The notes under the pieces: model-generated
What the model was told of the DNA's origin: nothing
Databases searched by the model: none
Seen by the model: only the letters and a program-made list of their open reading frames with translations
Made by a program: the position numbers and the translations under genes
NCBI GenBank assembly: GCA_045580065.1
Contig: JAZNNA010000003.1
Location: 1 to 56,704 of the forward strand
Length of the DNA stretch: 56,704 nt
From: Eubacteriales bacterium
Lineage (GTDB): Bacteria > Bacillota > Clostridia > Oscillospirales > CAG-272
Direction: 5' to 3'
Shown here: piece by piece, positions 5,761 through 56,102 of the stretch
How the letters are laid out: every line of letters starts with the position of its first letter
Numbering within the stretch: position 1 is the first letter of the stretch

Positions 5761-5792
5761 AAAGATCGCACCCGCGGGTGCGATCTTTTTTT
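5761..5792 (+). terminator. intrinsic terminator of the SDR-transketolase operon
   Basis: GATCGCACCC/GGGTGCGATC stem followed by TTTTTTT. Confidence 0.85.
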
Positions 5793-5891
5793 CACTGCCA
5801 AGCAAAACTAAACAAATCGTCAAAATTGTTTATTTTCAAATGGCTTTTTGTGTGTTATAATGATTTTATCAAAACATTGCGAGGTGCTACT

Positions 5892-6770: not shown

Positions 6771-6778
6771 AAAACAAA

Positions 6779-6814
6779 GCAGCCCCACGGCCAAATGCCG
6801 CGGGGCTGTTTTTT
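6779..6814. terminator. bidirectional terminator between convergent genes
   Basis: AGCCCCACGG/CCGCGGGGCT stem with one mismatch. T-tracts are present on both strands. Confidence 0.75.
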
Positions 6815-8663: not shown

Positions 8664-8769
8664 GGCGGTTTCCTCCTTTGCAGAAAACTCACCCCGGTCG
8701 GGGGAAAAGGATATCTTTCCCTATTATTTTACACAAAATGACACAAAAAGTCAAGCCCTTTAGAAAACA

Positions 8770-10218
8770 CTATAGCTGCGCCGCCTGCTCCAAAACGGCA
8801 TTTTTCTCGTTTAAGGGGGTACGTACCCCGCCGATCAGCTGAAAATCAAGGCTTCCCTTGCCAAAAAGCAACAGCACGTCACCGGGGCGAAGGTCGCTGA
8901 CGCCGCGCTTGATAGCGGCAACACGGTCGGGAATGACCACCGCGCGCTCGGGCTGCGCCATACCGTCCAGCATCTGCGCGCAGATGCTGCGCACGTCCTC
9001 GGCATCGGGATCGTCAGCCGTCAGATACACAAAATCCGCATACTCTGCAGCTACTCGCCCAAGCGCCATACGGCGGGAATGGGCACGTCCGCCAACCGAG
9101 CCGAGCAGCACGCACAGCCTGCCCGCGGTATGCTTGCGCAGAGCAGAGAGCGAAGCGGCAAGATGCTGCGGAAGATAGCCGCTGTCGGTATAGACCAGGC
9201 GCTCCTTTTGCGCATAAATACAGCAAAGTCCCACCGGCAAGTTGATCTCGCACAGGGCCTGAGAGATCTGCTCTGGCGTTACCCCGATCACACGGGCAAG
9301 CAACGCCGCAGCAGCGGCGTTTTCGGCAGCCCAAGGCGCAGGATCGGAAAGCAAGGCGGCGATCTCTGCACCGGCGACCTGCAGCACGATCTCAAGCTGC
9401 GGCTTGCCATAGGGAGATACACGTACGCGGCCCTCGCGCACAAAAGCATCACCGCCCTTGCCAAGCCAAAGCGCTTTTCCGCTTCCCTTTGTCTTTGTGC
9501 CGCACGGCAAAAGCGAAAATCCGCTGCATTCCTCAAGCAAACGCGGCAAGGCCTCGCGCTTTCTTGCAAGCGAGCGATCGAAATCCTCGATTTGGCAGGA
9601 ATATTCGGTGTTCGTCAGCAAAACGGCGGCAAACGGTATGAGTTTTGCGGCAAAATGTGCCAGCTGATAGGCAGAAAACTCCAAAATGGCGACCTCGGCG
9701 CCCGCTGCCGCCATTTTTTGCAGCGCATACTGTATTTCCACCGCATCCGGCACGGTGGTGCGCGGGTACTGTTTTCCCTTTTCAAGCGAAAAACCGCGTG
9801 ACGTGAGCGAGAAAACGCATATTTCCTGCCGTTTCAGGATCTGCTCCAGCAGCAGGGCAACCGAGGTCTTGCCCACCATGCCGGAAATGCCGATCACCGT
9901 CATTTTTCTTGCAGGATAGCCAAGTAAGCGCGCCGTAAGCTCGCCTGCCAGCGCCTCAGGGCACTCGCAAAGCACTATCACGCACCCCTCGCCCGGATAG
10001 GCGTCGTGCGCGCAAAGAAAAAGACGGCAGCCGTTTGCATACGCACACGCCATGCCGTCGCGTGCGCTGTCCACCGCGCGCCCGGTACAGATATATAACG
10101 CGTTCTGCAGCTCCCCCGTGGGGGCAGTTACGATCCTTGTCACCTCCTGCTCCGCAAGGGGCAGAGAGTCGGGCGAGAGGCGATACTCTACCCCGCAAAG
10201 CAATTCAGTCAGCAGCAT
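8770..10218 (-). CDS. Mur ligase family protein (MurE-like paralogue with degenerate motifs)
   Basis: Start at internal ATG 10218 with GGGAGGAG upstream. P-loop-like GISGMVGKTS, LEFSAYQL (canonical EVSSHAL), LTADDPDAED (canonical DNPRxEDP) and FGKGSLDF (canonical GKGHE). Confidence 0.7.
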   Translation of the reverse strand: MLLTELLCGVEYRLSPDSLPLAEQEVTRIVTAPTGELQNALYICTGRAVDSARDGMACAYANGCRLFLCAHDAYPGEGCVIVLCECPEALAGELTARLLGYPARKMTVIGISGMVGKTSVALLLEQILKRQEICVFSLTSRGFSLEKGKQYPRTTVPDAVEIQYALQKMAAAGAEVAILEFSAYQLAHFAAKLIPFAAVLLTNTEYSCQIEDFDRSLARKREALPRLLEECSGFSLLPCGTKTKGSGKALWLGKGGDAFVREGRVRVSPYGKPQLEIVLQVAGAEIAALLSDPAPWAAENAAAAALLARVIGVTPEQISQALCEINLPVGLCCIYAQKERLVYTDSGYLPQHLAASLSALRKHTAGRLCVLLGSVGGRAHSRRMALGRVAAEYADFVYLTADDPDAEDVRSICAQMLDGMAQPERAVVIPDRVAAIKRGVSDLRPGDVLLLFGKGSLDFQLIGGVRTPLNEKNAVLEQAAQL

Positions 10219-10219
10219 C

Positions 10220-10579
10220 TCAAAGCTCCTCCCCCAGCACCTCGGCGGCGCGGCGCAGAATAAAGCGCGCCTCAAGCACCGAGCGGTTTCTGTTTACAAA
10301 GCCGGCATACGCCTCGTCACAAAGCACCAGCAGCGGCACGCGCATACCGCCGGAAAGCTCAACGTCCTGCAAAATGGTCAAAAGCAGCTCGTCGGAGAGC
10401 GTGGGGGGCGCATTGATCAGCGTGACGGAGGGCAGAAAGCGCAACGTGAGCGCGCGCTTGCCGGAGAGGACCGTGCTGCCGATATCATAATGCTTTTGCA
10501 TATAACGCACGCAGGCGTGGCAGGGCGTGTTTGCCCCCAGCATCACGGGATATAAGCAATCGTGCAGCAGACTATCCAC
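10220..10579 (-). CDS. hypothetical protein (119 aa, CxxC-containing), coupled to the Mur-ligase paralogue
   Basis: Its stop is 1 nt before the downstream start. Contains the CHAC motif. No family recognised. Confidence 0.5.
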   Translation of the reverse strand: MDSLLHDCLYPVMLGANTPCHACVRYMQKHYDIGSTVLSGKRALTLRFLPSVTLINAPPTLSDELLLTILQDVELSGGMRVPLLVLCDEAYAGFVNRNRSVLEARFILRRAAEVLGEEL

Positions 10580-10669
10580 GGCGTTCCCCTCCTCTTTTTT
10601 ACTCTGCTATTATTATACCGCCTTTTGCTGCAAAAAACAAGCGAATTTTGTATCCTTGCCAAATTTCTA

Positions 10670-10698
10670 TTGCAAGCGGTGAAAAAATAGAGTATAAT
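10670..10698 (+). promoter_or_regulatory. sigma-A type promoter of the GNAT gene
   Basis: TTGCAA, 17 nt spacer, TATAAT. Confidence 0.65.
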
Positions 10699-10728
10699 GT
10701 TGTCAGAGCACCCCCTGAGGAGGACAGC

Positions 10729-11304
10729 ATGAAGAAGGAAACGCTATATCATATCTTTTCGCATATCCCGGAGCTGGAGACCGAGCGCCTTATCCTGCGC
10801 CAGATGCGCGTGCGCGATGCCGAGGATATGTTTGCCTACGCCAAGGACCCCGAGGTCACCAAATATCTTTTATGGCGTCCACACGCCAACCTGCAGTACA
10901 CGCGCAGTTATCTGGAATATCTTGCAGGGCGCTACCGCATCGGCGCGCACTACGAATGGGCGGTGATCTCAAAGCAATCAGGACATATGATCGGCACCTG
11001 CGGCTTTGCGCGCATCGACTGTGCCCACAACTGCGGCGAGCTTGGCTACGTGCTGAACCCCGACTACCGCGGCAAGGGGCTGATGCCCGAGGCAGCGCAG
11101 CGCGTGCTGCGCTTTGGCTTTGCGGTGCTGGGGCTTCACCGCATCGAGGCAAGATATATGATCGAAAACACGGCCTCGCGCCACGTGATGGAAAAGCTGA
11201 ATATGCGCTTTGAGGGCGTGGCGGCCGAATCTATGCTGGTCAAGGGCATCTACCGCGACATTGGCACCTGCGCCATTCTGGCAAAGGACTTCCGCGCCGA
11301 ATAA
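10729..11304 (+). CDS. GNAT family N-acetyltransferase (RimJ/RimL-like)
   Basis: ATG at 10729 preceded by GAGGAGG. ...TERLILRQMRVRDAEDMFAYAKDPEVTKYLLW... and YRGKGLMPEA acetyl-CoA-binding block. Confidence 0.85.
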   Translation: MKKETLYHIFSHIPELETERLILRQMRVRDAEDMFAYAKDPEVTKYLLWRPHANLQYTRSYLEYLAGRYRIGAHYEWAVISKQSGHMIGTCGFARIDCAHNCGELGYVLNPDYRGKGLMPEAAQRVLRFGFAVLGLHRIEARYMIENTASRHVMEKLNMRFEGVAAESMLVKGIYRDIGTCAILAKDFRAE

Positions 11305-34957: not shown

Positions 34958-35270
34958 TTGTTTTGCCTCCTTTTTGATTTTTGCGTCCATGGATGGGCGG
35001 TCTTTATAATTAATGAAGGCCGTCATCGATGTCCGCAGCTTTTAAGGGGCCGAGGATGCTCTGACACCCTGCCGAGCGTTTCTTTTCCCTCCCGACAAAA
35101 ACCGGATTTGCCCACACATCAGCATCTGTACGGGTAGTTTCCGGGATCGGGGGTACTTGCCAAACGTCCGGCGCGGTGCTTTTACACACTCGTTCGCCCG
35201 GTGAACGGACATACTCTGCGAAAATTAACCTACTTTACGTAGCAACCTCTCGCTTCATCGCATATCAGAC
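34958..35270 (-). promoter_or_regulatory. long (about 310 nt) untranslated leader of the S10 operon
   Basis: This is the distance between the predicted promoter (35277-35305) and the rpsJ ATG. It is GC-rich with several stem-forming segments and has no credible ORF. Confidence 0.5.
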
Positions 35271-35305: not shown

Positions 35306-35552
35306 TAGTTTTGCCGATTTTTTTCTTTACCCCATCTGTAGAAGTTAAAAGAATTTTATCCGCCCGAATTGTGCATTATGCATAAAAATAAACGGATTTA
35401 AAGCAAAATACGGCTTTTCTCCGCTTTACACCCACTGCTCTTCCCCAATTTTTTTGCATCTGACCCGATCCGGTCGCAAAGTCGCCCCAAAAGTGCAATA
35501 TTTGCCGCAAAAAACGAAAGTTTTTGTAGAACTCGCCCTTCGTCATAATTTA

Positions 35553-35581
35553 TTCACATTTATGCGGTATACTGATATAAA
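35553..35581 (+). promoter_or_regulatory. sigma-A type promoter (extended -10) of the membrane-protein/wHTH pair
   Basis: TTCACA, 17 nt spacer, TATAAA, with TGa immediately upstream of the -10. Confidence 0.55.
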
Positions 35582-35609
35582 TGTACTTTTTCGAAAGGAG
35601 TAGACCAAA

Positions 35610-36410
35610 GTGAAGCGGTTTTTCAGCGCGCGTTTTGCCCCCTATCTTCTGGCACTTCTGGCACTTTTTACGCTTGCTTGCACGGTGGTGCGCACCCTGG
35701 CGCTCGCCCTTGCCTTTGATGCCGATATCGGCTATTTCAAGGCCGGCGCCCCGCTTGTAATATTGCTGTACGTGCTGACCGGCCTGTCGCTTGCGGTCTG
35801 CCTGCTTTTCTTCCTTTATATTAAAAAGGAGGAGCTGCGGCAAAGCACGACCCCCACTCTGTTTGCCATGGTGGGCGACGGCATGTGCCTTTTGCTCTGC
35901 CTTTCTGCCGCCTGCTATCTGCTGCTGCGCGGCAATACGCTCCCCGCCCCGGCGCTCGTTTCGATCCTTGCGCTGATCTCCCTTCTTTTCGGCGCGGGCT
36001 ACTTTATCACACATTTTGTACGCATCTCCCCCGCCGTGCGCGTGCTGCTTGGCTATGCGCTGCTGCTCGCGCTGATCCTTGTGATCGTGCTCACCTATTT
36101 CGACCGCTACACGCAGATGAACGCACCGCACAAGATCTCGCAGCACCTGAGCATCCTGGCAGCGCTGCTTGCTCTGCTTTGCGAGCTGCGCGTGCAGCTT
36201 GGCCGTGCCAAGCACGCAAGATCCCTGCCCTTTTTGGGGCTTGCCGGCTTTGCCTGCCTTACCACCGGCGTTTCCAACGCGCTGGCCTTTGCGCTTGGCA
36301 GCTACGACGATCTCACCTATTTTGTATTTGACCTTCTGCTTTTGGCGCTTGGGCTGCACTTTGCAGCGGGTTGTGCCTCTTATCACGTTTGTGAGGAGGG
36401 AGAGCAATGA
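35610..36410 (+). CDS. polytopic membrane protein, unknown function
   Basis: GTG start 9 nt after AAAGGAG. 266 aa with about 7-8 hydrophobic segments. No recognisable family. Confidence 0.7.
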   Translation: MKRFFSARFAPYLLALLALFTLACTVVRTLALALAFDADIGYFKAGAPLVILLYVLTGLSLAVCLLFFLYIKKEELRQSTTPTLFAMVGDGMCLLLCLSAACYLLLRGNTLPAPALVSILALISLLFGAGYFITHFVRISPAVRVLLGYALLLALILVIVLTYFDRYTQMNAPHKISQHLSILAALLALLCELRVQLGRAKHARSLPFLGLAGFACLTTGVSNALAFALGSYDDLTYFVFDLLLLALGLHFAAGCASYHVCEEGEQ

Positions 36411-36958
36411 ATGCCAACAACCGCATCCAATGGCTGCACAAATATATCGTCAATATGCGCTATCCCAACGCCAACCGCCTTGCCGAGCGCTTTGGGATCT
36501 CTCACCGCCAGGCGCAGCGCGACGTGACCAGCCTGCGCGAGGATTACGGCGCGCCGCTTGCCTATAGCGCCGAGCATCGCGGCTTTTATTACACCGAGGA
36601 GTATTCCCTTCCCTCATACACCGCAAACGAGGGGGGACTGGACTACGTTGAGGCCGTGACCGGCGAGCGCTCGTTTGGCGCAAAGCAGGAGGTCCTGCAG
36701 ATGCAGATCCCCTACTCCGCCGTTTTGCGCATCCCCGACAAGCTCACGCGCCTGGAGCTTTCGCAATTCATCGTGGGCGAGGAATCGCGCGGCAATTACA
36801 TTTGCGAGTTCCACAGTGTGGAAATGTTTTTGGGGCTGGTGCTGGCTGCCGAGGCCGAGATCACGGTGCTGAAGCCCGCATGGCTGCGCCGCCGCCTGAT
36901 CCAATCTGCCGAGCGCGTGCTGCGCTGCAATATCGCCATCAAGGACGAGGAGGAATGA
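36407..36958 (+). CDS. short wHTH transcriptional regulator (YafY/BrxR-like HTH plus WCX-like C-terminus, no obvious WYL core)
   Basis: ATGA overlap with the upstream gene. N-terminus RIQWLHKYIVNMRYPNANRLAERFGISHRQAQRDVTSLREDYGAPL is an HTH_11/DeoR-type wHTH. C-terminus is ...VEMFLGLVLAAEAEITVLKPAWLRRRLIQSAERVL. Confidence 0.65.
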   Translation: MNANNRIQWLHKYIVNMRYPNANRLAERFGISHRQAQRDVTSLREDYGAPLAYSAEHRGFYYTEEYSLPSYTANEGGLDYVEAVTGERSFGAKQEVLQMQIPYSAVLRIPDKLTRLELSQFIVGEESRGNYICEFHSVEMFLGLVLAAEAEITVLKPAWLRRRLIQSAERVLRCNIAIKDEEE

Positions 36959-37018
36959 CCGATGCACCGCCGTGTGTCGGTCATTTCAAATTTCTTTCAA
37001 CTTTTTTCAAAAAAGGGG

Positions 37019-37047
37019 TTGACAAACCCTTTTGTTTGTGTTATAAT
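37019..37047 (+). promoter_or_regulatory. sigma-A type promoter of rplJ-rplL
   Basis: TTGACA, 17 nt spacer, TATAAT. Confidence 0.8.
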
Positions 37048-37054
37048 GCTTGCG

Positions 37055-37190
37055 TTATCCAAAGACAGCAGGTTCCCGTAAAGGTTACGTTCGCGTAGCT
37101 CTCCTGCCGAGGAGCGACTCAATTTCTCTATATAGAAGTGTGTCTTTCTTCGTGCCGGGGTGTGCCTTTGGCGGGAGAAAGATTTTTTTA
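37055..37190 (+). ncRNA. ribosomal protein L10 leader (autoregulatory attenuator)
   Basis: About 135-nt structured 5' UTR between the promoter and rplJ. It ends in the hairpin TCTTTCT...AGAAAGA followed by TTTTTTT (37143-37189), as in Firmicutes L10 leaders. Confidence 0.65.
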
Positions 37191-37221
37191 TATCAATTTT
37201 TCCATGGGAGGTGAAAACAAA

Positions 37222-37740
37222 ATGCCCAGCAAAGTTATCCTTGAACAAAAGCAGAAAGTGGTTGCCGAGCTTGCCGAGCAGATCAAAAACTCTGTTTCCG
37301 GTGTGCTTGTTAACTATCAGGGTATCACCGTTGAGGATGATACCGCAATGCGTAAGGCTCTGCGCGAAGCAGGTGTTCACTACGCCGTAGTAAAGAACAC
37401 TCTGACCGGCCGTGCCTGCGAAATGGTTGGCTATGGCGAAATGAAGCAGTACCTCAACGGTATGACCGCTATCGCCATCAGCGAAAACGACGCCGTTGCT
37501 CCTGCAAAGGTTCTGAAGAAGTTCGCCGATAAGGTCGAGTCCTTCAAGATCCTTGCCGGCTACCTTGACGGTGCCGTGATCGACGAGGCTACTGTAAACG
37601 CTCTCGCCGACATTCCTTCGAAGGAAACCCTTATTGCCAAGTTCCTTGGCAGCATCCAGTCCCCCGTTTACGGCTTTGCATATGCCATCCAGGCTATCAT
37701 CGACAAGAACGGCGAAGAGGCTGCTCCCGCTGCAGAATAA
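37222..37740 (+). CDS. rplJ: 50S ribosomal protein L10
   Basis: ATG at 37222 after GGGAGGTG. MPSKVILEQKQKVVAELAEQIKNSVSGVLVNYQGITVEDDTAMRKALREAG... Confidence 0.95.
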   Translation: MPSKVILEQKQKVVAELAEQIKNSVSGVLVNYQGITVEDDTAMRKALREAGVHYAVVKNTLTGRACEMVGYGEMKQYLNGMTAIAISENDAVAPAKVLKKFADKVESFKILAGYLDGAVIDEATVNALADIPSKETLIAKFLGSIQSPVYGFAYAIQAIIDKNGEEAAPAAE

Positions 37741-37843
37741 TGCGGCATAACGGTGCCGCACCGTTTAAAGCGGAAACCGCAGCGTGACGGCTTCACGCAA
37801 AACAAAATTTTAAAAATACTCTATTTACAGGAGGACAATCAAA

Positions 37844-38218
37844 ATGGCTAGCGAAAAGATTACCGCTATTGTTGAAAGTGTTAAGGGTCTTACCCTTCTT
37901 GAGCTCAACGAGCTTGTTAAGGCTGTTGAGGAGGAGTTCGGCGTATCCGCTGCTCCCGTTGCCGCTGTTGGCGTTGCAGCAGCTGCTGCTCCCGCTGCTG
38001 AGGAGAAGACCGAGTTCGACGTTATTCTTGCATCCTTCGGTGCTAAGAAGCTTGACGTTATCAAGGCTGTTCGTGAGATCACCGGCCTTGGCCTGAAGGA
38101 CGCTAAGGACCTCGTTGAGGCTGCTCCCAAGGCTGTTAAGGAAGGCGCTACTAAGGAAGAGGCTGAGAGCATCAAGAAGGCTCTCGAGGATGCCGGCGCT
38201 ACGGTTGAGCTTAAGTAA
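37844..38218 (+). CDS. rplL: 50S ribosomal protein L7/L12
   Basis: [34 protein letters not shown]...[19 protein letters not shown]... Confidence 0.96.
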
Positions 38219-38247
38219 GTTTTTACCGTTCCGAAAACCTGACTGTA

Positions 38248-38282
38248 CAAAAGGGGTGCACGTTTGTGCACCCCTTTTTGTC
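38248..38282 (+). terminator. intrinsic terminator after rplL
   Basis: AAAAGGGGTGCAC GTTT GTGCACCCCTTTTTG. Confidence 0.9.
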
Positions 38283-38295
38283 TTTGAAAAAACGC

Positions 38296-38347
38296 GCAGG
38301 GCTTCGTTGCTCCTCGCTCACCGGCTCGGAGTAGACTTCTACACCTT
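38296..38347. repeat. intergenic direct repeat, copy 1 (about 52 bp, palindromic core)
   Basis: GCAGGGCTTCGTTGCTCCTCGCTCACCGGCTCGGAGTAGACTTCTACACCTT. Core is GGAGTAGA-CT-TCTACACC. Confidence 0.8.
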
Positions 38348-38406
38348 CGCCGCCTCTCTGCGGTGCGCCTCGCCCTACACGTTTTTTCTTTGACAACCTT
38401 TTCTCG

Positions 38407-38457
38407 GCAGGCCTCATTGCCCCTCACTCACCGGCTCGGAGTAGAGTTCTACACCTT
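38407..38457. repeat. intergenic direct repeat, copy 2
   Basis: GCAGGCCTCATTGCCCCTCACTCACCGGCTCGGAGTAGAGTTCTACACCTT. About 110 bp downstream of copy 1, with a few mismatches. Confidence 0.8.
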
Positions 38458-43521: not shown

Positions 43522-43550
43522 TTTACAAGCGGGCGCGTTTATGATATACT
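43522..43550 (+). promoter_or_regulatory. sigma-A type promoter of the TIR-like/nucleoside-hydrolase cassette
   Basis: TTTACA, 17 nt spacer, TATACT. GGAGG RBS lies 7 nt before ATG 43578. Confidence 0.65.
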
Positions 43551-43577
43551 GGAGATATCAAAGGCGGAGGTTGTGCA

Positions 43578-44975
43578 ATGGGCAACAAACGAGTTTTTAT
43601 AGGCTGGAACGGCGCGGATAACCGCGAGATCGCACACAAGATCAGCAACATTTTGAGTGAAGCCAATTACCACCCCATCATCGGCGGACAATGGCGTGCC
43701 TCGCTGACCGTCAGTGAGGAGATCATCCACCAGATGAACGGGTGCGATTTTGCCATCATCCTGATCGAAAAGGAGATCCGCAAAAACGACCGCGACGAGA
43801 TCGTGAGCATGGGCTTTAACCCCAACGTGATGATGGAGATGGGCTATATGCTCCACAAGCTCACCGACCCCAACCGTATCCGCCGCATCCTGATCAACAT
43901 GGACCCGAGCGAGCTCCCCTCCGACCTGCAGGGCGCGTGGAGCATCGCCGTGAAAAAGCCAAGCTATACCGAGGGAGATGACAATGCAAGAGATGCAGCG
44001 CTCTCTCACGTGGCAAGCAAGGCGACCGAGGACTTTTTTGAATACATCAAGATCGTTCGCAGCCGCACCAACAAGCTGGACTACTTTGACCATTGGGACG
44101 AGAACGTGCTGGACATTTACCGCTACACGGGCGACGTCCGCATTTCCGAAAAGCTGATATTCGGTATGCAGGCAGCCATCTACTCCGGTGATTTTGAAAA
44201 GCTGTATCAAAAGCTTTTGCAGCTGCGCGACCACCTCTCGCAGCAGGACCGCTTTCACGACTATCCTGCCGTTGCCTGCGCCATTGCAGTGCTTTCGGTA
44301 TTTGTTGTCAGCAAGCGCCTGACCGTGCTACCCACCGAGCAGCAGTTTTACGACCTCTGCGAGGCCTTGGAGCAGGAATACGAGCGCGACGTGGACGACC
44401 CCGGGCTGCAGGTGTGGTGCAAGATCTTCCGTCTGGACAAGCAAGAGCTGTGCTATGAGTTGTTTGCGCAAACGCTTGATAATGATGACGAAAAGATCGA
44501 ATATTTTTACGATGCCCTGTCGCTTTGCCATGAGATCGTTGATCTGATCGAGGCGCATCTACAGACCGAGGAGGGCAAAAAGGACGAGAAATACGCCCTG
44601 CTCTACAAGGCGTTTGCGCATCGCAACATCTCGCAGATCCACAAGCGCCTTTGCGAGCTGGAACCGGAAAAGGCCACCGAGCATCTGGAGGAGCAGAAAA
44701 AATACTGCGCCGTTACGCTGCGCAACCGCAAGGAGCTTTACGACTACTACAACGGCAGCGCAAGAGAAAACACGCTCTCGATGGATTTTATCTCGCAGGA
44801 GTATCTGCTGGCGCTTGCCGAGCAGCATAAGTTTGAAGAAAACCGCCTGGAGAAAAGAAAGATCGCCCAGACCGTGCGCGGCATCTTTCACAGGTGGCAG
44901 GACCGCAACACGGTGCGCAATATGATCTTTGAAAAGGTCGGGCGCGAGGCGGCAGAATTTTTGACCCGAAGCTAA
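43578..44975 (+). CDS. TIR-like domain (Cap12/PycTIR-type, PF10137-like) protein with a roughly 330-aa helical C-terminal domain
   Basis: The N-terminal ~130 aa carry, in order, RVFIGWNG, SEEIIHQMNGCDFAIILIEKE, NPNVMMEMGYMLHKL and ELPSDLQGAW. These correspond to the family blocks vFivHG / dfAvvLlTPDD / RqNVifElGyfiGkLG / PSDlxG. The remainder has no P-loop and no TM segment, and is rich in heptad/TPR-like helices. Confidence 0.7.
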   Translation: MGNKRVFIGWNGADNREIAHKISNILSEANYHPIIGGQWRASLTVSEEIIHQMNGCDFAIILIEKEIRKNDRDEIVSMGFNPNVMMEMGYMLHKLTDPNRIRRILINMDPSELPSDLQGAWSIAVKKPSYTEGDDNARDAALSHVASKATEDFFEYIKIVRSRTNKLDYFDHWDENVLDIYRYTGDVRISEKLIFGMQAAIYSGDFEKLYQKLLQLRDHLSQQDRFHDYPAVACAIAVLSVFVVSKRLTVLPTEQQFYDLCEALEQEYERDVDDPGLQVWCKIFRLDKQELCYELFAQTLDNDDEKIEYFYDALSLCHEIVDLIEAHLQTEEGKKDEKYALLYKAFAHRNISQIHKRLCELEPEKATEHLEEQKKYCAVTLRNRKELYDYYNGSARENTLSMDFISQEYLLALAEQHKFEENRLEKRKIAQTVRGIFHRWQDRNTVRNMIFEKVGREAAEFLTRS

Positions 44976-44987
44976 GGAGCAAACACA

Positions 44988-45779
44988 ATGAAGAAAAAAG
45001 TAGCACTCTTGTGCGATTACGGTATGGACGATGCCGTTGCAACGCTCTACCTGTTAAAGCACGCCGCACTGTTTGAAAAAATTGACATTCTTGCCATTGG
45101 CGGCAACTTCCCGCAAAAGGATTCGCTTGTCAACATCAAGCGGCTGCTGACCTATGCGGACAGTGTGCCAAGCAACCTGCGCGTGGTGGATACCGCAAGC
45201 GCACCGCAAAGCGAAAATCACATCCCCGAGATCCACGGCAACGACGGCATGGGCGACGTGCTACCCGCCGCATTTGAGGAAAAGGCACCGGTGATCACCT
45301 ACGAGGAATGGCTGCGCGACGCGGATGCAGATACCGTGATCGTCAGCCTTGGCCCCTGCAGCGTTACGCAGGATATTTTGCAGAAAAAGGGCGCACTCCC
45401 CCTTATTTTGATGGCCGGCAACGTCGCCGAGCCCCCCAACTATAACGGATACGAGTTCAATCACGGTATGGACACGGCCGCCTTTGCCGAAACGGTAAAG
45501 CACCCCCATGCGGTGGCCACGCTGGACACCTGCCACGTGCCCGCCTGCAACCTCAACATGCTGACCCTGCCTGCAGAAGGGCTGTTTGCCCGTATGCTGC
45601 AGCGCTATCAGGCGCTATCAAAGGGGCGCGGCGAGGAGATCTGCAGCGTATACGATATGGTGGCGGTGGCATATCTGATCCACCCCGATCGCTTTGTGAC
45701 CGAGGACGTCACCGACCCGGACGGTAACCGCCTGTCTCTTTTGCGCTACGTTAGCAAAAAATCCATCCTTGAGGACTAA
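44988..45779 (+). CDS. divergent inosine-uridine nucleoside N-ribohydrolase (IU-NH) fold protein
   Basis: 12 nt after the upstream stop, with AAGGAG RBS. Motifs are LLCDYGMDDAVA (canonical DxDxGxDDxxA, first Asp replaced by Leu), HGNDGMGD, LGPCSVT, MAGN...EFNHGMDTAAF, LDTCHV and YDMVAVAYLIHPD. 263 aa, shorter than typical. Confidence 0.7.
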   Translation: MKKKVALLCDYGMDDAVATLYLLKHAALFEKIDILAIGGNFPQKDSLVNIKRLLTYADSVPSNLRVVDTASAPQSENHIPEIHGNDGMGDVLPAAFEEKAPVITYEEWLRDADADTVIVSLGPCSVTQDILQKKGALPLILMAGNVAEPPNYNGYEFNHGMDTAAFAETVKHPHAVATLDTCHVPACNLNMLTLPAEGLFARMLQRYQALSKGRGEEICSVYDMVAVAYLIHPDRFVTEDVTDPDGNRLSLLRYVSKKSILED

Positions 45780-45796
45780 AAAATCCCCCAAAACAG

Positions 45797-45830
45797 CAAA
45801 AAGCCACCCCACGTGGGGTGGCTTTTTTAT
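45797..45830. terminator. bidirectional terminator (NH-fold gene / small membrane-protein gene)
   Basis: AAAAAGCCACCCC ACGT GGGGTGGCTTTTTT. Confidence 0.9.
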
Positions 45831-45831
45831 T

Positions 45832-46227
45832 TTAATCTTCAAACACCAGCAGCATTGGACCGTATGCATTGGTACTAAAGCAATACGGTGAGCTTGCCAG
45901 TGCCATCAGGCTTCCGTCATCCAAAAAGCTGACAACAAAATAATCTCCGTTGCCATAACAAAGCAGCTCGCATTCGCCGTTGACGGTTTTGGATTTCCAT
46001 TTTCCCTCTCGGGAGACTTGCGTCTTTCCGTCACAAGTGACGATCAGCTCATAGGTATTGTCCTTGTAAATGCCAAGCGCGTATTCATACGAGCCGTCCT
46101 TTTTATCATAGACGCCGTAAAATTTCCACACACGCCCAAGATGCAGCAGCACTGCCGTCAGGATCACGACAAGCAAAATAACTGCTACAACGACAAGCGC
46201 GATCAATCTTTTTGCCTTAAGTGTCAT
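45832..46227 (-). CDS. small membrane-anchored hypothetical protein, translationally coupled to thrS
   Basis: ATG at 46227 overlaps the thrS TGA (ATGA). One TM segment (LIALVVVAVILLVVILTAVLL), then about 95 aa of beta-rich sequence. An alternative start is at 46251. Confidence 0.6.
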   Translation of the reverse strand: MTLKAKRLIALVVVAVILLVVILTAVLLHLGRVWKFYGVYDKKDGSYEYALGIYKDNTYELIVTCDGKTQVSREGKWKSKTVNGECELLCYGNGDYFVVSFLDDGSLMALASSPYCFSTNAYGPMLLVFED

Positions 46228-48161
46228 CTTCTCTTTTCCTTGATCTCGCAAAGGATGTCTGCCTTAAAGGCATCCAGTGCCATCACGCCCTTGTCGCCTT
46301 CCTTGCGGGAGCGCACGGCAACGGTCTTGTCGTTCATCTCGTTATCGCCGATGACCAGCATATAGGGCAGCTTTTCCAGCTGTGCGTTGCGGATCTTTTT
46401 GCCGATGGTTTCGTTGCGGTCGTCCACCTCAACGCGGATGCCGTCAGCCTCAAGGGCGCGCTTGACCTCGTAGGCATAGTCGATATGCTCGTCGCCGATG
46501 GGCAGCACCTTGACCTGCACGGGAGCCATCCACGTGGGCAGGGCGCCTGCAAAGCGCTCGATCAAATAAGCCAGCGTGCGCTCGTAGCAGCCAAGGCTGG
46601 TGCGGTGGATGATATAGGGGCGCTTCATCTGCCCGTCGCTATCCACGTACTCCATGCCAAACTTTTCGGCAAGCAGCATGTCGATCTGGATGGTCACGAT
46701 GGTGTCCTCTTTGCCAAATACGTTCTTATACTGGATATCCAGCTTGGGGCCGTAGAAGGCAGCCTCGTCAATGCCGATCTCATACTTCAAGCCAAGATGA
46801 TCCAGGATCTGACCCATCACGCTTTGCGCGTGCTCCCATTGCTCGGGCGTGCCCTCATACTTGATGCCGGCACGTGCGGGATCCCACTGGGAGAATCGGA
46901 AGGTGCAGTTTTCCAGCATACCAACGGTATCCAGGCAATACTTTGCAAGCTCCAGACAGCCGCGGAACTCCTCCTCAAGCTGCTCGGGGCGCAGGACAAG
47001 ATGCCCCTCGGAAATGGTAAACTGGCGCACGCGGATCAGACCGTGCATCTCGCCGGATTCCTCGTTACGGAACAGGGTAGAGGTCTCGCCAAGACGCATG
47101 GGCAGCTCGCGGTAGGAGCGCTTTTTGTTGAGGAACACCTGGTACTGGAAGGGGCAGGTCATGGGGCGCAGTGCAAAGCACTCCTTGGTATAGTCGTCGG
47201 GGTCACCCAGCACAAACATACCGTCCAGATAGTGATCCCAGTGGCCGGAGATCTTGTAAAGCTCGCGCTTTGCCATCAGGGGGGTCTTGGTCAGCAGATA
47301 CCCGCGCTTTTGCTCCTCGTCCTCGATCCAGCGCTGCAGCGTCTGGATCACGCGTGCGCCCTTGGGCAGCAGGATGGGCAGGCCCTGGCCGATCTCCTCA
47401 ACGGTGGTGAAATATTCCAGCTCGCGGCCCACCTTGTTGTGGTCGCGCTTTCTTGCTTCTTCCAATGCTTCCAAATGCGCCTTCAGCTCGTCCTTAGAGG
47501 GGAACGCCGTGCCGTACACGCGCTGCAGCATCTTGTTTTTCTGGTCGCCCTTCCAGTAAGCGCCGGTGCATTGCGTCAGCTTGAATGCCTTAACGGCACC
47601 GGTGGAGAACAGGTGCGGGCCTGCGCAAAGGTCGGTGAACTCGCCCTGCTTGTAAAAGCTGATCACGGCATCAGCGGGCAGCTCCTCGATCAGCTGCACC
47701 TTATAGGGCTCGCCCTTTTCCTGCATCAGGGCGATCGCCTCGGCGCGGGGCAGCTCAAAGCGCTCGATCAGATGATTTTCCTTGACGATCTTTTTCATCT
47801 CGCCCTCAATGGCGGCAAGCTGCTCGGTGCCAAAGGAAATATCGCTGTCAAAATCATAGTAAAAGCCATCCTCAATGGCAGGGCCGATGGTCAGCTTGAC
47901 CTCGGGATACAGTCTTTTCACTGCCTGCGCCAGGATATGAGAGGCGGTGTGACGGAACACGTGCCTGCCCTCCGGCTCGGCAAAGGTCAAAAGCTGCACC
48001 TCGGCATCGGCAGAAAGCTGCTCGGTCATGGCGACCACGCGGCCGTTTACCTTAGCGGCAACGTGGGCACGGGAAACAAGCTCGGCCTCCTTGGCGGCAT
48101 CAAACACGGAAAGCGGTGCCTCAAAGCACATTTCCTTTTCTGCAAATTTTACGCAAAACAT
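46224..48161 (-). CDS. thrS: threonine--tRNA ligase
   Basis: 645 aa with TGS, editing, class II catalytic and anticodon-binding order. ...RHTASHILAQAVKRLYP..., FRNEESGEMHGLIRVRQFT. Thr T-box upstream. Confidence 0.96.
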   Translation of the reverse strand: MFCVKFAEKEMCFEAPLSVFDAAKEAELVSRAHVAAKVNGRVVAMTEQLSADAEVQLLTFAEPEGRHVFRHTASHILAQAVKRLYPEVKLTIGPAIEDGFYYDFDSDISFGTEQLAAIEGEMKKIVKENHLIERFELPRAEAIALMQEKGEPYKVQLIEELPADAVISFYKQGEFTDLCAGPHLFSTGAVKAFKLTQCTGAYWKGDQKNKMLQRVYGTAFPSKDELKAHLEALEEARKRDHNKVGRELEYFTTVEEIGQGLPILLPKGARVIQTLQRWIEDEEQKRGYLLTKTPLMAKRELYKISGHWDHYLDGMFVLGDPDDYTKECFALRPMTCPFQYQVFLNKKRSYRELPMRLGETSTLFRNEESGEMHGLIRVRQFTISEGHLVLRPEQLEEEFRGCLELAKYCLDTVGMLENCTFRFSQWDPARAGIKYEGTPEQWEHAQSVMGQILDHLGLKYEIGIDEAAFYGPKLDIQYKNVFGKEDTIVTIQIDMLLAEKFGMEYVDSDGQMKRPYIIHRTSLGCYERTLAYLIERFAGALPTWMAPVQVKVLPIGDEHIDYAYEVKRALEADGIRVEVDDRNETIGKKIRNAQLEKLPYMLVIGDNEMNDKTVAVRSRKEGDKGVMALDAFKADILCEIKEKRR

Positions 48162-48164
48162 AAC

Positions 48165-48372
48165 AAAACACTCCTTAAAAGGTATTGATTTTAAAAAAAC
48201 GCACCCCGAGCGACCAATTAGCCGCTCGGGGTGCGGAGATTTCGCACGGTTCCACCCGAACTTTTTACTTTACAAGCTATACAAGCTGACGGCCGGGCGG
48301 TACCTGATAAAAGCTTGTGAAAGACCTTTCAGCCAAGGGCCTTCTCTCTGCACGCAAGTGGTTTTATCGGCT
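48165..48372 (-). ncRNA. T-box riboswitch leader, Thr (ACC) specifier, controlling thrS
   Basis: Minus strand carries the AGAGA motif, GGTACCGCC with the ACC codon, the T-box sequence GGGTGGAACCGTGCG, and the terminator GCACCCCGAGCG...CGCTCGGGGTGC followed by TTTTTTT. Confidence 0.85.
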
Positions 48373-48383
48373 TGTTCCAGCCA

Positions 48384-48957: not shown

Positions 48958-50979
48958 TTACTCCTCAACGGGTGCTTCGTCAACGGGCATAGCAGCCTCA
49001 GCAGCGGCAACCTCTTCAAGAAGTGCGCGGATGGAAAGGCTGACCTTTTGCTTGTCGTTGTCGATCTCGATGATCTTGGCATCGACCTCCTGGCCGACCT
49101 CAAGCACGTCGGCAGGCTTGCCGATGCGGGTCATAGCGATCTGGGAGATGTGGATCAGGCCGTCAACGCCGTCAACGATCTCAGCAAATGCGCCGAATGC
49201 CATCAGGTTTACGATCTTAACCGAAACAACGTCGCCAACCTGATACTGGTTGGTGAAGATGAACCAGGGGTTGGTCTCCTCGGTCTTGTAGCCAAGGGAG
49301 ATGCGCTTTTTCTCAGCATCGAAGGACTTGACGAACACGGTGATGGTGTCGCCCACGGCAACGACCTCTGCGGGGGACTTGATGTGCTTCCAGGAAAGCT
49401 CGCTGGTGTGCACCATGCCGTCAACGCCGCCAAGATCCACAAATGCGCCGTAAGAGGTCATGCTCTTTACAACGCCGGTGTAGGTCTTACCCTCTTCGAT
49501 CTCAGACCAGAACTTCTCCTCTGCTGCGCGGCGCTCCTCGCGAGCAACCACACGGATAGAGCCGATGGCCTTGTTGCCGGGCTCCTTGGTCTCGATCACC
49601 TTGAACTTAACGGTGGTACCCTTCAGGGGGGCAAGATCGCCATCCTTGGGAACACCGGTCTGGGATGCGGGGATGAACACGCGGTTGCCAAGGACGTAAA
49701 CGATAACGCCGCCCTTTACAACGTCGGAAACAACGGCCTCAAGAACAGTGCCCTCGTCCTTTGCTGCAACAACCTTTTCCCAGTTCTTGGTGGAGTCAAC
49801 ACGGCGCTTATCAAGCTCTGCCATGCCCTCCTTGTCACTCACGCGAATGACCTTTGCTTCGATGGTGTCACCGATCTTGAACTGCTCGGTGAGCTTTACA
49901 GAAGAATCGGCGCTAACGTGGTCGGCGGTGATATAGCCGGTCACGCTTGTACCAAGGTCAAGCTGCAGCTCTGTATCGGACACAGCGGTCACGGTACCGG
50001 TAACGATCTCTCCTGTATGTATCATTTTAGTAGCGCCATCAAGCATTTGTGCAAAGTTTTCCATTTCACTCATTGTTTTATGTACCTCCTCAATGATGTC
50101 CGAAGGGGTTGATGCCCCAGCGGCAATGCCCACTTTGCGATGGGTAAATGAAAACGCCTTGGCCAAGTGCAGGTCCGCCGTACCCGATATCCAGAGCGTT
50201 TCGGGGCAGTATGTGCGGCAGATCTCGAAAAGCTTTGCGGTATTAGAGCTTTCGCGACCTCCGATCACAACCATTCCGTCACATTCGGCAGCCAGTGCTG
50301 CGGCCTCGGTTTGGCGCAAGTGCGTAACATTACATATTGTATCAAAAATTAATGGATTTGTATAGTACTTTCGCAAAATTTTCTGACATTTTTTCCATTC
50401 TGTTAAATTTTGCGTGGTTTGTGCAACCATAATCGGTGTTTTTGACGAAAATTTATGTTGCCATTTGTCTAAAATTGCCTGCTCCATTTCCGCTGCAGAA
50501 GAAAACACGGCCTTCTCCCCGTCAAAGCAGCTCATAAAGCCCTCCACCTCCGGGTGGTGCTTGCTGCCTACGCAAAAAAACAGCACCTCCTCCGCCCGCG
50601 CATTTTGCTCGGCGGCGATGCGGTGGATCTTTTCCACAAAGGTGCAGGTGCAATCCACAAAGCAAAAGCTTTGGTTCTGTGCCGCAAGCTGCTCCAGCAG
50701 CTCTCTTGTCTGCACTGTGATGCCATGGGCGCGAACAAATACCGTTACGGGGGATCCGGGCGTTGCGCTTGTTGCAAGCTCCTGCAGCTCGTCGCCGGAA
50801 ACGGCGCGCACCCCCTGCTGTGCAAGGCTTTGAATATACTCCTCGTTATGGATCAGATGCCCGAGGGTAAAAATGCGCTCGCCGGGCAGCCTTTGCTGCA
50901 TGCGGCGGCGCAGCCGCTCGGTCGCGGCGCGTACGCCGGGGCAAAAGCCCGCGTTTTTTGCAATTACGACCTCGCTCAT
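48958..50979 (-). CDS. ispH: bifunctional 4-hydroxy-3-methylbut-2-enyl diphosphate reductase / ribosomal protein S1-domain fusion
   Basis: N-terminal IspH/LytB (AKNAGFCPGVRAA...) of about 290 aa, followed by four S1 (OB-fold) repeats, for example GTVTAVSDTELQLDLG and GVVKSMTSYGAFVDLGGVDGMVHTSELS. Confidence 0.9.
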   Translation of the reverse strand: MSEVVIAKNAGFCPGVRAATERLRRRMQQRLPGERIFTLGHLIHNEEYIQSLAQQGVRAVSGDELQELATSATPGSPVTVFVRAHGITVQTRELLEQLAAQNQSFCFVDCTCTFVEKIHRIAAEQNARAEEVLFFCVGSKHHPEVEGFMSCFDGEKAVFSSAAEMEQAILDKWQHKFSSKTPIMVAQTTQNLTEWKKCQKILRKYYTNPLIFDTICNVTHLRQTEAAALAAECDGMVVIGGRESSNTAKLFEICRTYCPETLWISGTADLHLAKAFSFTHRKVGIAAGASTPSDIIEEVHKTMSEMENFAQMLDGATKMIHTGEIVTGTVTAVSDTELQLDLGTSVTGYITADHVSADSSVKLTEQFKIGDTIEAKVIRVSDKEGMAELDKRRVDSTKNWEKVVAAKDEGTVLEAVVSDVVKGGVIVYVLGNRVFIPASQTGVPKDGDLAPLKGTTVKFKVIETKEPGNKAIGSIRVVAREERRAAEEKFWSEIEEGKTYTGVVKSMTSYGAFVDLGGVDGMVHTSELSWKHIKSPAEVVAVGDTITVFVKSFDAEKKRISLGYKTEETNPWFIFTNQYQVGDVVSVKIVNLMAFGAFAEIVDGVDGLIHISQIAMTRIGKPADVLEVGQEVDAKIIEIDNDKQKVSLSIRALLEEVAAAEAAMPVDEAPVEE

Positions 50980-54569: not shown

Positions 54570-54840
54570 GGTAAACAAGAAAGACGATGACCGAAAATAG
54601 TAAGCAAGCACGCTTTTCGCAGAGAGCCGCCGGTTGGTGTAAGGCGGCAAAAGCAGTTTGCCGAATACCTTCGCGAGTTGCGCCCCGAAAGGCTTTGCCC
54701 GGTAGGCGGCGACGGTGTCGCCCGTTATGCGAGAACGGCATTATCGTGCCGTAAGGCTGTTGCGTGCAGCAGCGAACAGAGGTGGTACCGCGTATCGGGA
54801 GATGCGCCCTCTTGCATTTTTTGCAAGGGGGCTTTTTATT
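54570..54840 (+). ncRNA. T-box riboswitch leader, Tyr (UAC) specifier, controlling tyrS
   Basis: AGAGA motif (about 54621), TAC at 54666-54668 in the specifier region, T-box GGTGGTACCGCG (54781-54792), and terminator GCGCCCTCTTGCA...TGCAAGGGGGC followed by TTTTTA. Confidence 0.85.
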
Positions 54841-54881
54841 TTCCCCCTTCTCCCAAAAATATCTGTAAAAGGAGAAACGAG

Positions 54882-56102
54882 ATGAAGATTTATGAAGAGC
54901 TGGTCGCGCGCGGTCTGATCGCGCAGGTGACCGACGAGAGTGAGATCCGCGAGCTGATCAACGAGGGCAAGGCGACCTTCTACATCGGCTTTGACCCCAC
55001 GGCTGATTCCCTGCACGTGGGCCACTTTATGGCACTGTGCCTGATGAAAAGACTGCAAATGGCAGGCAACCGCCCCGTGGTGCTGATCGGCGGCGGCACC
55101 GCCATGATCGGCGACCCCTCCGGCCGCACCGATATGCGAAAGATGATGACGCGCGAGACCATCCAGCACAACGTGGACTGCTTTAAAAAGCAAATGGAGC
55201 GCTTTATCGAGTTTGGTGAGGACAAGGCGATCCTTGTAAACAACGCCGACTGGCTGCTTGACCTCAATTACGTTGAGGTGCTGCGTGACGTGGGCGCTTG
55301 CTTCTCGGTCAACAAGATGCTTTCTGCCGAGTGCTATAAGCAGCGCATGGAAAAGGGCCTTTCCTTCCTGGAATTCAACTACATGATCATGCAGTCCTAC
55401 GACTTCTATCACCTGTACCAAAACTATGGCTGCAATATGCAGTTCGGCGGCGACGACCAGTGGTCGAATATGCTGGGCGGCACCGAGCTGATCCGCAAAA
55501 AGCTGGGCAAGGACGCTTACGCCATGACCATCACGCTGCTGCTCAACTCCGAGGGCAAGAAGATGGGCAAGACCGCGAGCGGTGCCGTTTGGCTTGACCC
55601 CAACAAGACCACCCCCTACGAGTTCTATCAGTACTGGCGCAACGTGGGCGATGCCGACGTGCTCAAGTGCATCCGTATGCTGACCTTCCTGCCCATGGAG
55701 CAGATCGAGCAGATGAACACCTGGGAGGGCGAGCAGCTCAACCGCGCCAAGGAGATCCTTGCCTTTGAGCTGACCAAGCTGGTTCACGGCGAGGAGGAGG
55801 CACAAAAGGCCGAGGCTGCCGCAAAGGCACTGTTTGGTGCAGGCTCCGGCGAGAACGCCCCCGAGGCAGAGCTTTGCGACGCCGATTTTGTGGACGGCAC
55901 CATCGACATTCTCACCCTTCTTGTAAAGAGCGGGCTGTGCGCTTCCAAATCTGAGGCACGCCGCACTGTTGAGCAGGGCGGTGCCACCGCCGCCGGCGAA
56001 AAGGTCACCGACATCAAAAAAACCTTTACCGCTGCCGATTTTGCAGAGGGCTTGCTCGTAAAGCGCGGCAAAAAGAACTTCCGCCGCGTGGTGCTGAAAT
56101 AA
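54882..56102 (+). CDS. tyrS: tyrosine--tRNA ligase
   Basis: ATG at 54882 after [25 protein letters not shown]...[13 protein letters not shown] (HIGH), KMGKT (KMSKS) and a C-terminal S4 domain. Confidence 0.96.

Follow-up and report, generated by a model that had tools for sequence, protein, structure and literature searches.

Two adjacent genes in a 56,704-nt stretch of contig JAZNNA010000003.1 (Eubacteriales bacterium, assembly GCA_045580065.1; below, the window is this whole stretch) form a real, rare, and undescribed two-gene unit of uncultured gut Clostridia. The first open reading frame (ORF1, 43578-44975, forward strand, 465 aa) encodes a TIR-like domain, a linker helix, and a helical domain and is, judged from its sequence, a putative effector-sensor; the second (ORF2, 44988-45779, forward strand, 263 aa) encodes a short, divergent protein of the IU-nucleoside-hydrolase (IU-NH) fold. 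In our preferred reading, to which we assign a probability of about 0.35, the pair is a conflict module, most likely of the anti-phage abortive-infection type, in which ORF1 would act as effector-sensor and ORF2 as an N-ribohydrolase controlling a small ribosyl ligand. The sensor domain and the class of the partner enzyme are undescribed, and the unit as a whole is kin to conflict systems with TIR or transmembrane (TM) effectors.

A rare gene pair of uncultured gut Clostridia

The two ORFs lie exactly 12 nt apart, and the coordinates and spacing given for a two-gene cassette in a preliminary description of the window were confirmed. Scanning a collection of 185,579 species genomes, we found relatives at 17 loci, 14 of which carry the ORF1-ORF2 pair. 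Wherever the ORF1 homolog was at least 42% identical (14 of 14 loci), an ORF2 homolog followed directly downstream on the same strand at a distance of 19-52 nt, and the synteny of the two genes thus extends to other genomes. None of the genes flanking the cassette in the window occurs at those 14 pair loci. The pairwise divergences of the helical domain and of the nucleoside-hydrolase-like (NH) protein are correlated (Mantel r = 0.62, 0/5000 permutations).

Homologs formed 51 clusters for ORF1 and 158 for ORF2, and all clusters with a taxon name came from uncultured Clostridia (Acutalibacteraceae, Oscillospiraceae). The paired form has a narrow host range, being found mostly in metagenome-assembled genomes of uncultured Clostridia, several of them from animal-gut samples; the loci are a small sample, almost all of them metagenome-assembled or metagenomic contigs. 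In an all-vs-all comparison of 132 neighboring ORFs from 13 loci, no third gene recurred near the pair, and the comparison linked only loci at the same genomic position. The pair adjoins different genes even in a relative with an 80% identical ORF2; close relatives keep the locus, with L009, L010, and L018 sharing downstream genes.

The TIR-helical protein and its alternative N-terminus

The N-terminal domain of ORF1 (43578-43967, forward strand, aa 1-130) is a TIR domain of the PF10137 type known from Cap12 and PycTIR. Residues 5-125 match profile positions 1-117 of 119 of PF10137 (48.2 bits, cut-off 24.7, E = 1.3e-12), and the sequence blocks by which the preliminary description had recognized a TIR-like domain are all present in the order and at the positions given there. 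Residues E64, E87, and D116 are invariant. When a profile of 30 ORF1 homologs was compared with PDB sequences, the Cap12 TIR-STING protein (7un8) was the sole significant solved relative, and E87 of ORF1 (NVMMEMGY) was aligned with the Glu of its NVVFEFG motif, which we take to be the catalytic residue of TIR NADases. E87 is kept in 30/30 homologs and in the distant set, and an acidic residue at the expected catalytic position, as claimed earlier, is indeed found.

The AlphaFold2 model of ORF1 (pLDDT 88.5, pTM 0.77) consists of an alpha/beta TIR-like part (aa 1-125), a long linker helix (aa 135-162), and a set of further helices (aa 167-457). A Foldseek search with this model placed the TIR-STING structure 9lmq first (E = 4e-4), with SARM1 and plant TIR domains further down the list, and by the model the N-terminus has a TIR (flavodoxin-like) fold. 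By analogy with Cap12 and PycTIR, the domain may be an NAD+-cleaving effector; the characterized PF10137 members named in the Pfam description are immune effectors.

The remainder of ORF1 is an all-helical, TPR-like domain specific to this family (44064-44972, forward strand, aa 163-465). It belongs to no Pfam family and has no match among PDB sequences, ORF1 contains no Walker A motif, and Foldseek returned only generic TPR-like matches for the helical part (LGN, KLC, and APC subunits, E ~1e-2). A hydrophobic stretch at aa 229-245 (Kyte-Doolittle 1.96) is modeled as a helix inside the domain with pLDDT >90 and is, by the model, not an obvious membrane segment. The earlier characterization of this part as helical or TPR-like, with neither P-loop nor TM segment, agrees with these results. 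The conserved polar motifs of the domain include KLDYxDxW, WCxIxRxDKxEL, YRN, and QEYxLxLxE.

An exhaustive HMMER search of 1.84 billion representative proteins recovered 35 relatives of the helical domain. The longer ones carry a PF10137 N-terminus (10/10 scanned) and the shorter ones two hydrophobic N-terminal segments (10/10 examined). The domain is presumably the regulatory or receptor part of ORF1 and would bind a ligand; if the system is immune, this family-specific domain would be a new receptor or regulatory domain.

The shorter architecture has an operon of its own. A class of ORF2 homologs with a length of 259 aa, about 50% identical to ORF2, is preceded 5-13 nt upstream by a gene for a protein of ~375 aa without Pfam annotation. 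This protein shares 35% identity with the ORF1 helical domain over aa 163-463 (E = 4e-56), and its N-terminus has two hydrophobic TM-like segments (2TM) instead of the TIR domain. Every directly examined locus of the 259-aa class had the 2TM-helical and NH pair, in full at L022 and L068 and in part at L026, where the downstream gene fragment starts LLCDYGLDDAAATLYLL. The 2TM-helical family comprises 17 clusters, and for 8 of them the longest contig has the same size as the contig of an NH-like match. Some residues of the helical domain are common to the TIR type and the 2TM type. As TIR and 2TM alternate on one conserved helical scaffold, the N-terminus looks like a swappable effector, which indicates that execution falls to the N-terminus and regulation to the helical domain. 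A similar alternation is found in cyclic-oligonucleotide-based anti-phage signaling systems (CBASS) and in the pyrimidine cyclase system for anti-phage resistance (Pycsar), where TIR effectors alternate with TM effectors (Cap14/15, PycTM).

The sister system also bears on the order of action of the two proteins. The preliminary description had assigned sensing to the helical domain, cleavage or derivatization of NAD(P) to the TIR domain, and the processing of an ADP-ribose- or nucleoside-type product to the NH enzyme; in a variant, the NH enzyme would prevent the reconstitution of NAD+ from ADP-ribose (ADPR) and nicotinamide. A precedent is XopQ, an enzyme of the PF01156 fold to which ORF2 belongs, which cleaves the TIR product 2'cADPR, and the two genes are tightly paired at every TIR-type locus of the Clostridia clade and also at the distant loci L025 and L029. 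However, since the sister system of the 2TM-helical type lacks a TIR domain and keeps both the helical domain and the NH partner, ORF2 is not merely processing a TIR product, and the ORF2 family has no special affinity to XopQ. We consider this order of events very improbable.

The nucleoside-hydrolase-like partner

ORF2 matches PF01156 with 84.4 bits (cut-off 34.2) and has the motif series by which it had been assigned to a divergent nucleoside-hydrolase fold. It scores only 27-40 bits against the NCBIfam equivalogs RihA, RihB, and RihC (cut-offs 382-459; models of ~305-313 aa) and, as suspected, is not an ordinary member of any of them. With the AlphaFold2 model of ORF2 (pLDDT 94.1, pTM 0.93), the best Foldseek match was YeiK (3mkm, E = 7e-13, TM-score 0.71, ~20% identity), and 50/50 top matches were nucleoside hydrolases with TM-scores of ~0.7. 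ORF2 thus shares the fold and the calcium and ribose ligands of RihA, RihB, RihC, and the protozoan IU-NH and IAG-nucleoside hydrolase (IAG-NH) enzymes, at an identity to Rih and IU-NH enzymes of ~20%. It differs from them in having Leu or Phe for the first Asp of the metal-binding motif, Tyr or Trp for the leaving-group His, and an additional, family-specific invariant His159, as well as in length, the classical nucleoside hydrolases among its matches measuring ~300-345 aa. Unlike salvage nucleoside hydrolases, it is encoded strictly in an operon with an effector-like gene.

The differences are concentrated in the active site. In the HMMER alignment with YeiK/RihB (PDB 1q8f), Leu8 stands at the first Asp of the DxDxxxDD motif, a position that is Leu or Phe throughout the family, and Tyr222 stands where YeiK has the His before a conserved Asp; among 38 family members, position 222 is Tyr in 31, Trp in 7, and never His. 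The match ends near residue 258 of the 313 in YeiK, the C-terminus of ORF2 being ~50 aa shorter. The substitution of Tyr for the leaving-group His and the unusual shortness of the protein had been noted before, and both observations hold. The first Asp of the calcium-binding motif had been reported as lacking as well: Leu8 is indeed found there, but the wording was too strong, as the actual metal ligands are intact. The calcium-binding Asp residues of YeiK (the second and fourth of the motif and the Asp after the His) correspond to D10, D15, and D223 of ORF2, and all three are kept.

Residues D10, D14, D15, N40, H83, D86, E156, N158, H159, D180, and D223 are invariant in the ORF2 family. Seven of these (D10, D14, D15, N40, E156, N158, and D223) align with YeiK residues and are kept in 38/38 sequences; their roles as calcium and ribose ligands we take over from YeiK and IU-NH structures. 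The invariance of the metal- and ribose-binding residues across the 38 members implies that the activity of ORF2 is under selection. From its sequence, ORF2 looks like a catalytically competent N-ribohydrolase with a remodeled leaving-group pocket, neither a pseudoenzyme nor an ordinary salvage enzyme. The invariant His159 (45462-45464) directly follows the EFN motif (EFNH, where YeiK has EFNI) and may functionally replace the missing leaving-group His. With Tyr or Trp instead of the His, one more invariant His, and the loss of C-terminal residues, the divergent active site suggests that ORF2 acts on something other than ordinary nucleosides. A Trp at the leaving-group position recalls the aromatic stacking used by IAG-NH. 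By such analogy, an aromatic residue in place of the acid-catalyst His suggests either a stacked purine substrate, as in IAG-NH, or a preactivated leaving group, as in nicotinamide ribosides.

Partner enzymes of a second lineage occur in the P0202 clade, whose helical domain is ~27% identical to that of ORF1. In both loci found for this clade (L025, L029) a PF01156 gene lies directly 3', in L025 with an overlap of 14 nt between the TIR-helical and NH genes. These partners are of the canonical type, with a full DxDxxxDD motif, the His kept, a length of 289-308 aa, and 134-170 bits. That two NH lineages serve as partners suggests that NH chemistry matters rather than one protein surface, and together with the invariant active site it is the reason why we favor chemistry over mere binding.

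This comparison also bears on the possibility of a guard or toxin-antitoxin pair, in which the ORF2 protein would hold the helical domain inactive and a phage factor hitting the NH enzyme or its synthesis would free the effector. The 12-nt spacing and the gene overlap in L025 suggest a translational coupling typical of interacting pairs, the divergences of ORF1 and ORF2 are correlated, TPR-like domains bind proteins, and the logic would suit TIR and 2TM effectors alike. On the other hand, the two partner lineages, one short with Tyr or Trp and one canonical with His, fit a shared chemistry better than a shared surface, a pure antitoxin needs no invariant catalytic residues, and solo ORF1-type genes occur with no antidote nearby. 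Such an arrangement seems to us decidedly unlikely.

The L025 pair stands in a larger co-directional cluster (positions 111-8332 of an 11.3-kb Logan SRR29674351 contig), which consists, in order, of a VWA protein, a PP2C-like phosphatase, the TIR-helical protein, the NH protein, a 778-aa protein, and a 522-aa RyR-domain protein. The 778-aa protein has no family and only a faint FHA match, and several genes of the cluster are tightly spaced or overlapping; the cluster could represent a conflict island of greater size or the system in an extended form. At L027, a gene for a 500-aa DHH-family phosphoesterase (9351-10853) lies 30 nt 3' of a very distant TIR-helical gene, P0208. As an alternative nucleotide-processing partner it is unlikely: homologs are present at four loci and adjacent only in L027, and its occurrence there is probably lineage synteny.

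Short NH-like proteins also occur without a helical partner. Two such genes, 39-43% identical to ORF2, were found at L023 (6737-8768) and L024 (8001-8816), one encoding a Tyr-type and one a Trp-type protein; one of the two genes overlaps a histidine-kinase gene at its end, and the other is preceded by ABC-transporter genes. Clostridia thus appear to have a broader family of short NH enzymes from which the partnered NH proteins descend.

Proposed mechanism, related systems, and genomic context

In the conflict module that we favor, the TIR domain would be an NAD+-cleaving effector that becomes active on oligomerization, as in Cap12 and PycTIR, and the TPR-like helical domain would be the receptor part controlling the NADase. 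ORF2 would act upstream of the effector and not downstream: it would either produce or eliminate a small ligand of the ribosyl, nucleoside, or nucleobase type, which the helical domain would sense. The favored submechanism would resemble CBASS, Pycsar, and Thoeris, with the partner enzyme supplying a signal and the TIR or 2TM module executing. A mirror version, nearly as likely, would have ORF2 clear the ligand such that the effector stays off; in type III CRISPR, ring nucleases clear the ligand to keep the effector off. In a more specific form of the first version, the IU-NH-fold enzyme would be an infection-responsive signal generator that turns NAD+, nicotinamide riboside, or a nucleoside, possibly of the phage, into a ribosyl or nucleobase messenger, and the TPR-like receptor would switch on the TIR NADase or the 2TM module. 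We regard this form as quite unlikely; if true, it would represent Thoeris or CBASS logic without a TIR synthase or cyclase. The combinations present in nature, TIR versus 2TM, with or without NH, and with two NH lineages, provide a natural experiment by which the order of action is testable, and identifying the substrate of ORF2 could bring to light a small-molecule signal or a depletion strategy not described so far.

Several observations weigh against the favored module. A hydrolase is unusual as a signal generator, and TPR-like domains usually bind proteins and not small molecules, the structural matches of the helical domain being generic. The NH partnership is strict in some clades and absent in others: an NH gene lies within 4 kb at only 2/31 distant loci (L025 and L029), 27 examined distant TIR-helical loci have no NH gene within that distance, and the P0050/P0051 clade (L016, L021) is solo. 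Effectors that need a signal generator of their own rarely occur without it, and these loci therefore imply that an ORF1-type protein can probably sense and act alone. Links to defense islands are weak. Most pair loci are embedded among housekeeping genes, and a defense-type gene lies within 4 kb at 3/13 nonredundant loci (L004, L005, L011), a sample too small for statistics. The PADLOC scan of the 55 other ORFs of the window found no recognizable defense system, in line with the earlier statement that no cyclase, STAND NTPase, SIR2, or other partner lies nearby. Searches of IMG/VR viral contigs, PLSDB plasmids, and INPHARED phages turned up no relatives. The G+C content of the cassette matches that of its flanks and no flanking repeats were detected, leaving no sign of a compositional island or of transposon scars. 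Of the description of the cassette as insertion-like, the changed site even at 80% identity of ORF2 stands; the composition and the lack of repeats do not agree with it.

The solo clades and the TPR-like fold speak for an autonomous sensor. In such a scheme, the TPR-like domain of ORF1 would itself recognize a phage protein, as TPR-like folds typically bind proteins, and trigger TIR oligomerization or 2TM membrane damage. ORF2 would then be a second effector or enhancer that destroys, in parallel, nucleosides, nucleotides, or NAD precursors (nicotinamide riboside, nicotinamide mononucleotide), leaving no cell recovery. The invariance of the catalytic residues of ORF2 agrees with a second effector, and an aromatic residue (Tyr or Trp) instead of the acid-catalyst His would fit an already charged leaving group. 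Yeast Urh1, an IU-NH enzyme, hydrolyzes nicotinamide riboside, and the structure 8rih among the Foldseek matches of ORF2, which we take to be Urh1, was counted in favor of this role. However, ORF2 consists of one small domain and lacks a regulatory part, and as constitutive nucleoside hydrolysis is harmless (Rih enzymes), its switching on would stay unexplained; nor does a block of NAD resynthesis explain why ORF2 is kept in the 2TM versions. We hold the autonomous scheme to be possible, though unlikely.

That the cassette has some conflict or defense role appears probable to us, because of the PF10137 effector family, the TIR/2TM swap, the rarity and patchiness of the pair, its changing position, and the defense-type neighbors at 3/13 loci. 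The contrary view is that of a nonimmune regulatory or metabolic module of gut Clostridia, in which nucleoside or NAD-riboside turnover is tied to a stress or cell-fate switch and the TIR-like domain binds or processes nucleotides instead of acting as a suicide NADase. The mostly housekeeping neighbors, the narrow host range of the paired form, the retention of the locus in L009, L010, and L018, the lack of mobile-element hallmarks, and the distant short NH proteins found alone beside unrelated genes would all agree with this view. But a TIR-to-2TM swap on a conserved scaffold is typical of toxic effectors and not of metabolism, the rarity of the pair (17 loci in 185,579 species genomes, 14 of them paired) and its changed position at 80% identical ORF2 fit poorly, and the characterized PF10137 members of the Pfam description have immune functions. 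We therefore find a nonimmune module unlikely as well. If immune, the pair is a defense candidate from uncultured Clostridia, mostly of gut and rumen metagenomes; the defense surveys consulted drew heavily on Pseudomonadota and Bacillota genomes, and their systems were tested in E. coli and Bacillus subtilis.

The closest known relatives of ORF1 are the TIR effectors of CBASS and Pycsar. Cap12 and PycTIR belong to the same PF10137 subfamily with Glu at the aligned catalytic position, and Cap12 TIR-STING, like ORF1, has the TIR domain N-terminal and the regulatory domain C-terminal (residue ranges in the 7un8 and 9lmq matches). The C-terminal domain of ORF1, on the other hand, consists of family-specific TPR-like helices and is unlike STING, SAVED, or cyclic-nucleotide (cNMP)-binding domains. 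CBASS and Pycsar have a CD-NTase or a pyrimidine cyclase, whereas the cassette and the window have neither and the conserved partner is an IU-NH-fold hydrolase; no cyclase was found with the pair in PADLOC and Pfam scans of the window and the 132 neighboring ORFs in 13 loci. Membership in CBASS is ruled out, as there is no CD-NTase and no SAVED, STING, or other cyclic-oligonucleotide sensor domain, and membership in Pycsar is ruled out by the lack of a cyclase and of a cNMP-binding domain. The match of ORF1 to the PycTIR model is weak (E = 2.6e-3) and covers the TIR part only. The best PADLOC match of ORF1 is PDC-S35 (E = 1.1e-7), through its PF10137-type TIR domain: only aa 3-127 match, at profile positions 82-206 of 231, and the architecture has no helical domain or NH partner. 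A literature search retrieved no paper mentioning PDC-S35.

Thoeris resembles the cassette in having two genes, for a TIR protein and a second protein, and in its ribosyl (ADPR-derived) chemistry. In Thoeris the TIR protein makes the signal and its partner is the effector, whereas the TIR domain of the cassette is of the effector (PF10137) type and interchangeable with 2TM. Types V-XI of Thoeris were described by Yirmiya et al. (bioRxiv 10.64898/2025.12.03.692087). According to the text and part of the tables of that survey, PF10137 clusters were screened, TIR proteins in a CBASS or Pycsar context and standalone TIR proteins were dropped, and enrichment beside known defense genes was demanded. 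In the same portions, the type VIII effector ThsI is given as "CMP hydrolase and TPR", an N-glycosidase-type domain plus TPR, and the "hydrolase" effector of type XI is a HIT hydrolase; compared by description, the architecture of ThsI loosely resembles that of ORF1. No IU-NH/PF01156 partner was found in the text and this part of the tables (10.64898/2025.12.03.692087). We rejected membership in Thoeris, as there is no separate signal-generating ThsB and a PF01156 partner is not among the effectors ThsA and ThsC-ThsL as far as these portions list them.

XopQ hydrolyzes 2'cADPR and blocks type VI Thoeris (Roth et al., bioRxiv 10.64898/2026.06.15.732069). XopQ/HopQ1 belong to the Pfam family and fold of ORF2 and exemplify a PF01156 fold repurposed for an immune ribosyl signal, which by analogy would provide a precedent for the ligand-controlling role favored here (10.64898/2026.06.15.732069). 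Our literature search linked PF01156 to phage defense only in that paper. XopQ is a secreted virulence factor inhibiting immunity, whereas ORF2 is a partner encoded with an effector-like gene. If the pair is immune, the IU-NH fold would be a new class of partner enzyme, its link to immunity so far being only XopQ, a pathogen enzyme destroying a TIR signal. XopQ/HopQ1 chains were not among the matches of the ORF2 profile to PDB sequences at E <= 0.01 nor among the top 50 Foldseek matches. The idea of ORF2 as a XopQ-like enzyme was dropped, as it shows no special similarity and is no closer to XopQ than to Rih enzymes.

The defense-type genes near the pair are of three kinds. At L004, the neighbor is a standalone TIR_2 gene. 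The segment from 6928 to 9867 of this locus can be compared with 8076-9831 of L018, as the two share their outer flanks (MgtE, peptidase U32, the pair, YitT) and differ between U32 and the pair: L004 has genes for a MarR-nucleotidyltransferase, the standalone 394-aa TIR_2 protein, and a GDSL hydrolase, and L018 has TspO, a 144-aa protein without assignment, and YhfC. The segment is a local variable region adjoining the pair. The end of the L004 contig carries a DUF4368 gene. At L005 (5203-8396), the neighbor lies 3.5 kb upstream and encodes a 356-aa protein that aligns over its full length with the PADLOC CBASS "Effector TIR" model (E = 4.8e-33; PycTIR model 5e-10), making it a full-length CBASS/Pycsar-type TIR effector; an overlapping gene for a 709-aa protein with no PADLOC match comes next. 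No cyclase was identified near it, and the 356-aa protein may be an orphan effector or part of another undescribed TIR system. At L011 (14114-15355), a CARF-PDDEXK nuclease of the Can/Card1/Csx1-like type, ancillary to type III CRISPR, lies 1.9 kb downstream of the pair. Several other PADLOC matches among the neighbors are generic (DinG helicase, GlgB, XRE-type HTH regulators), and AriA matches near the pair were taken as generic too.

The signals around the cassette in the window support its description as self-contained. A putative ORF1 ribosome-binding site, read from the sequence, is GGAGG (43566-43570, forward strand), 7 nt 5' of the ATG, and that of ORF2 is AAGGAG (44974-44979, forward strand), overlapping the ORF1 stop codon. 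A promoter-like site, TTTACA-17 nt-TATACT (43522-43550, forward strand), agrees with the consensus at 10/12 positions and has a TG-extended -10 element. The cassette promoter claimed earlier is thus plausible; the site is present, but such sites number 6 in the region against 3.0 +/- 1.9 expected by chance from shuffled sequence (~2x), and a consensus match is weak evidence by itself. The strong bidirectional terminator that had also been claimed was confirmed as a perfect 15+15-nt palindrome between an A5 run and a T-rich run (45798-45827). It is common to the cassette and a convergent gene for a 138-aa protein (45832-46251, reverse strand), which has one N-terminal hydrophobic segment and no family match; tblastn found no counterpart of this gene at other cassette loci. 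The wider flanks encode AraC, GH127, a GDSL hydrolase, ThrRS, an MGS-like protein, and an IspH-S1 fusion, and the identification of AraC, GH127, and thrS as housekeeping or accessory genes was confirmed. Rfam models detected no RNA element in the cassette and the adjoining DNA.

Elsewhere in the window, three consecutive ORFs (284, 253, and 199 aa; 35550-38424, reverse strand) have no Pfam family at E <= 1e-5, and some of them could be spurious. In the gap of ~220 nt preceding thrS (48162-48383), no T-box was detected. An ordinary T-box leader (RF00230, 117.6 bits) lies at 54578-54814 on the forward strand, directly 5' of the tyrosyl-tRNA synthetase gene (~54880-56102, forward strand). An S10-Clostridia ribosomal-protein leader (RF03136, 37.6 bits, gathering score 35.1) is found at 35194-35267 on the reverse strand. 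The IspH-S1 fusion (48958-50979, reverse strand) is a protein of 673 aa that joins IspH/LytB to four S1 RNA-binding domains.

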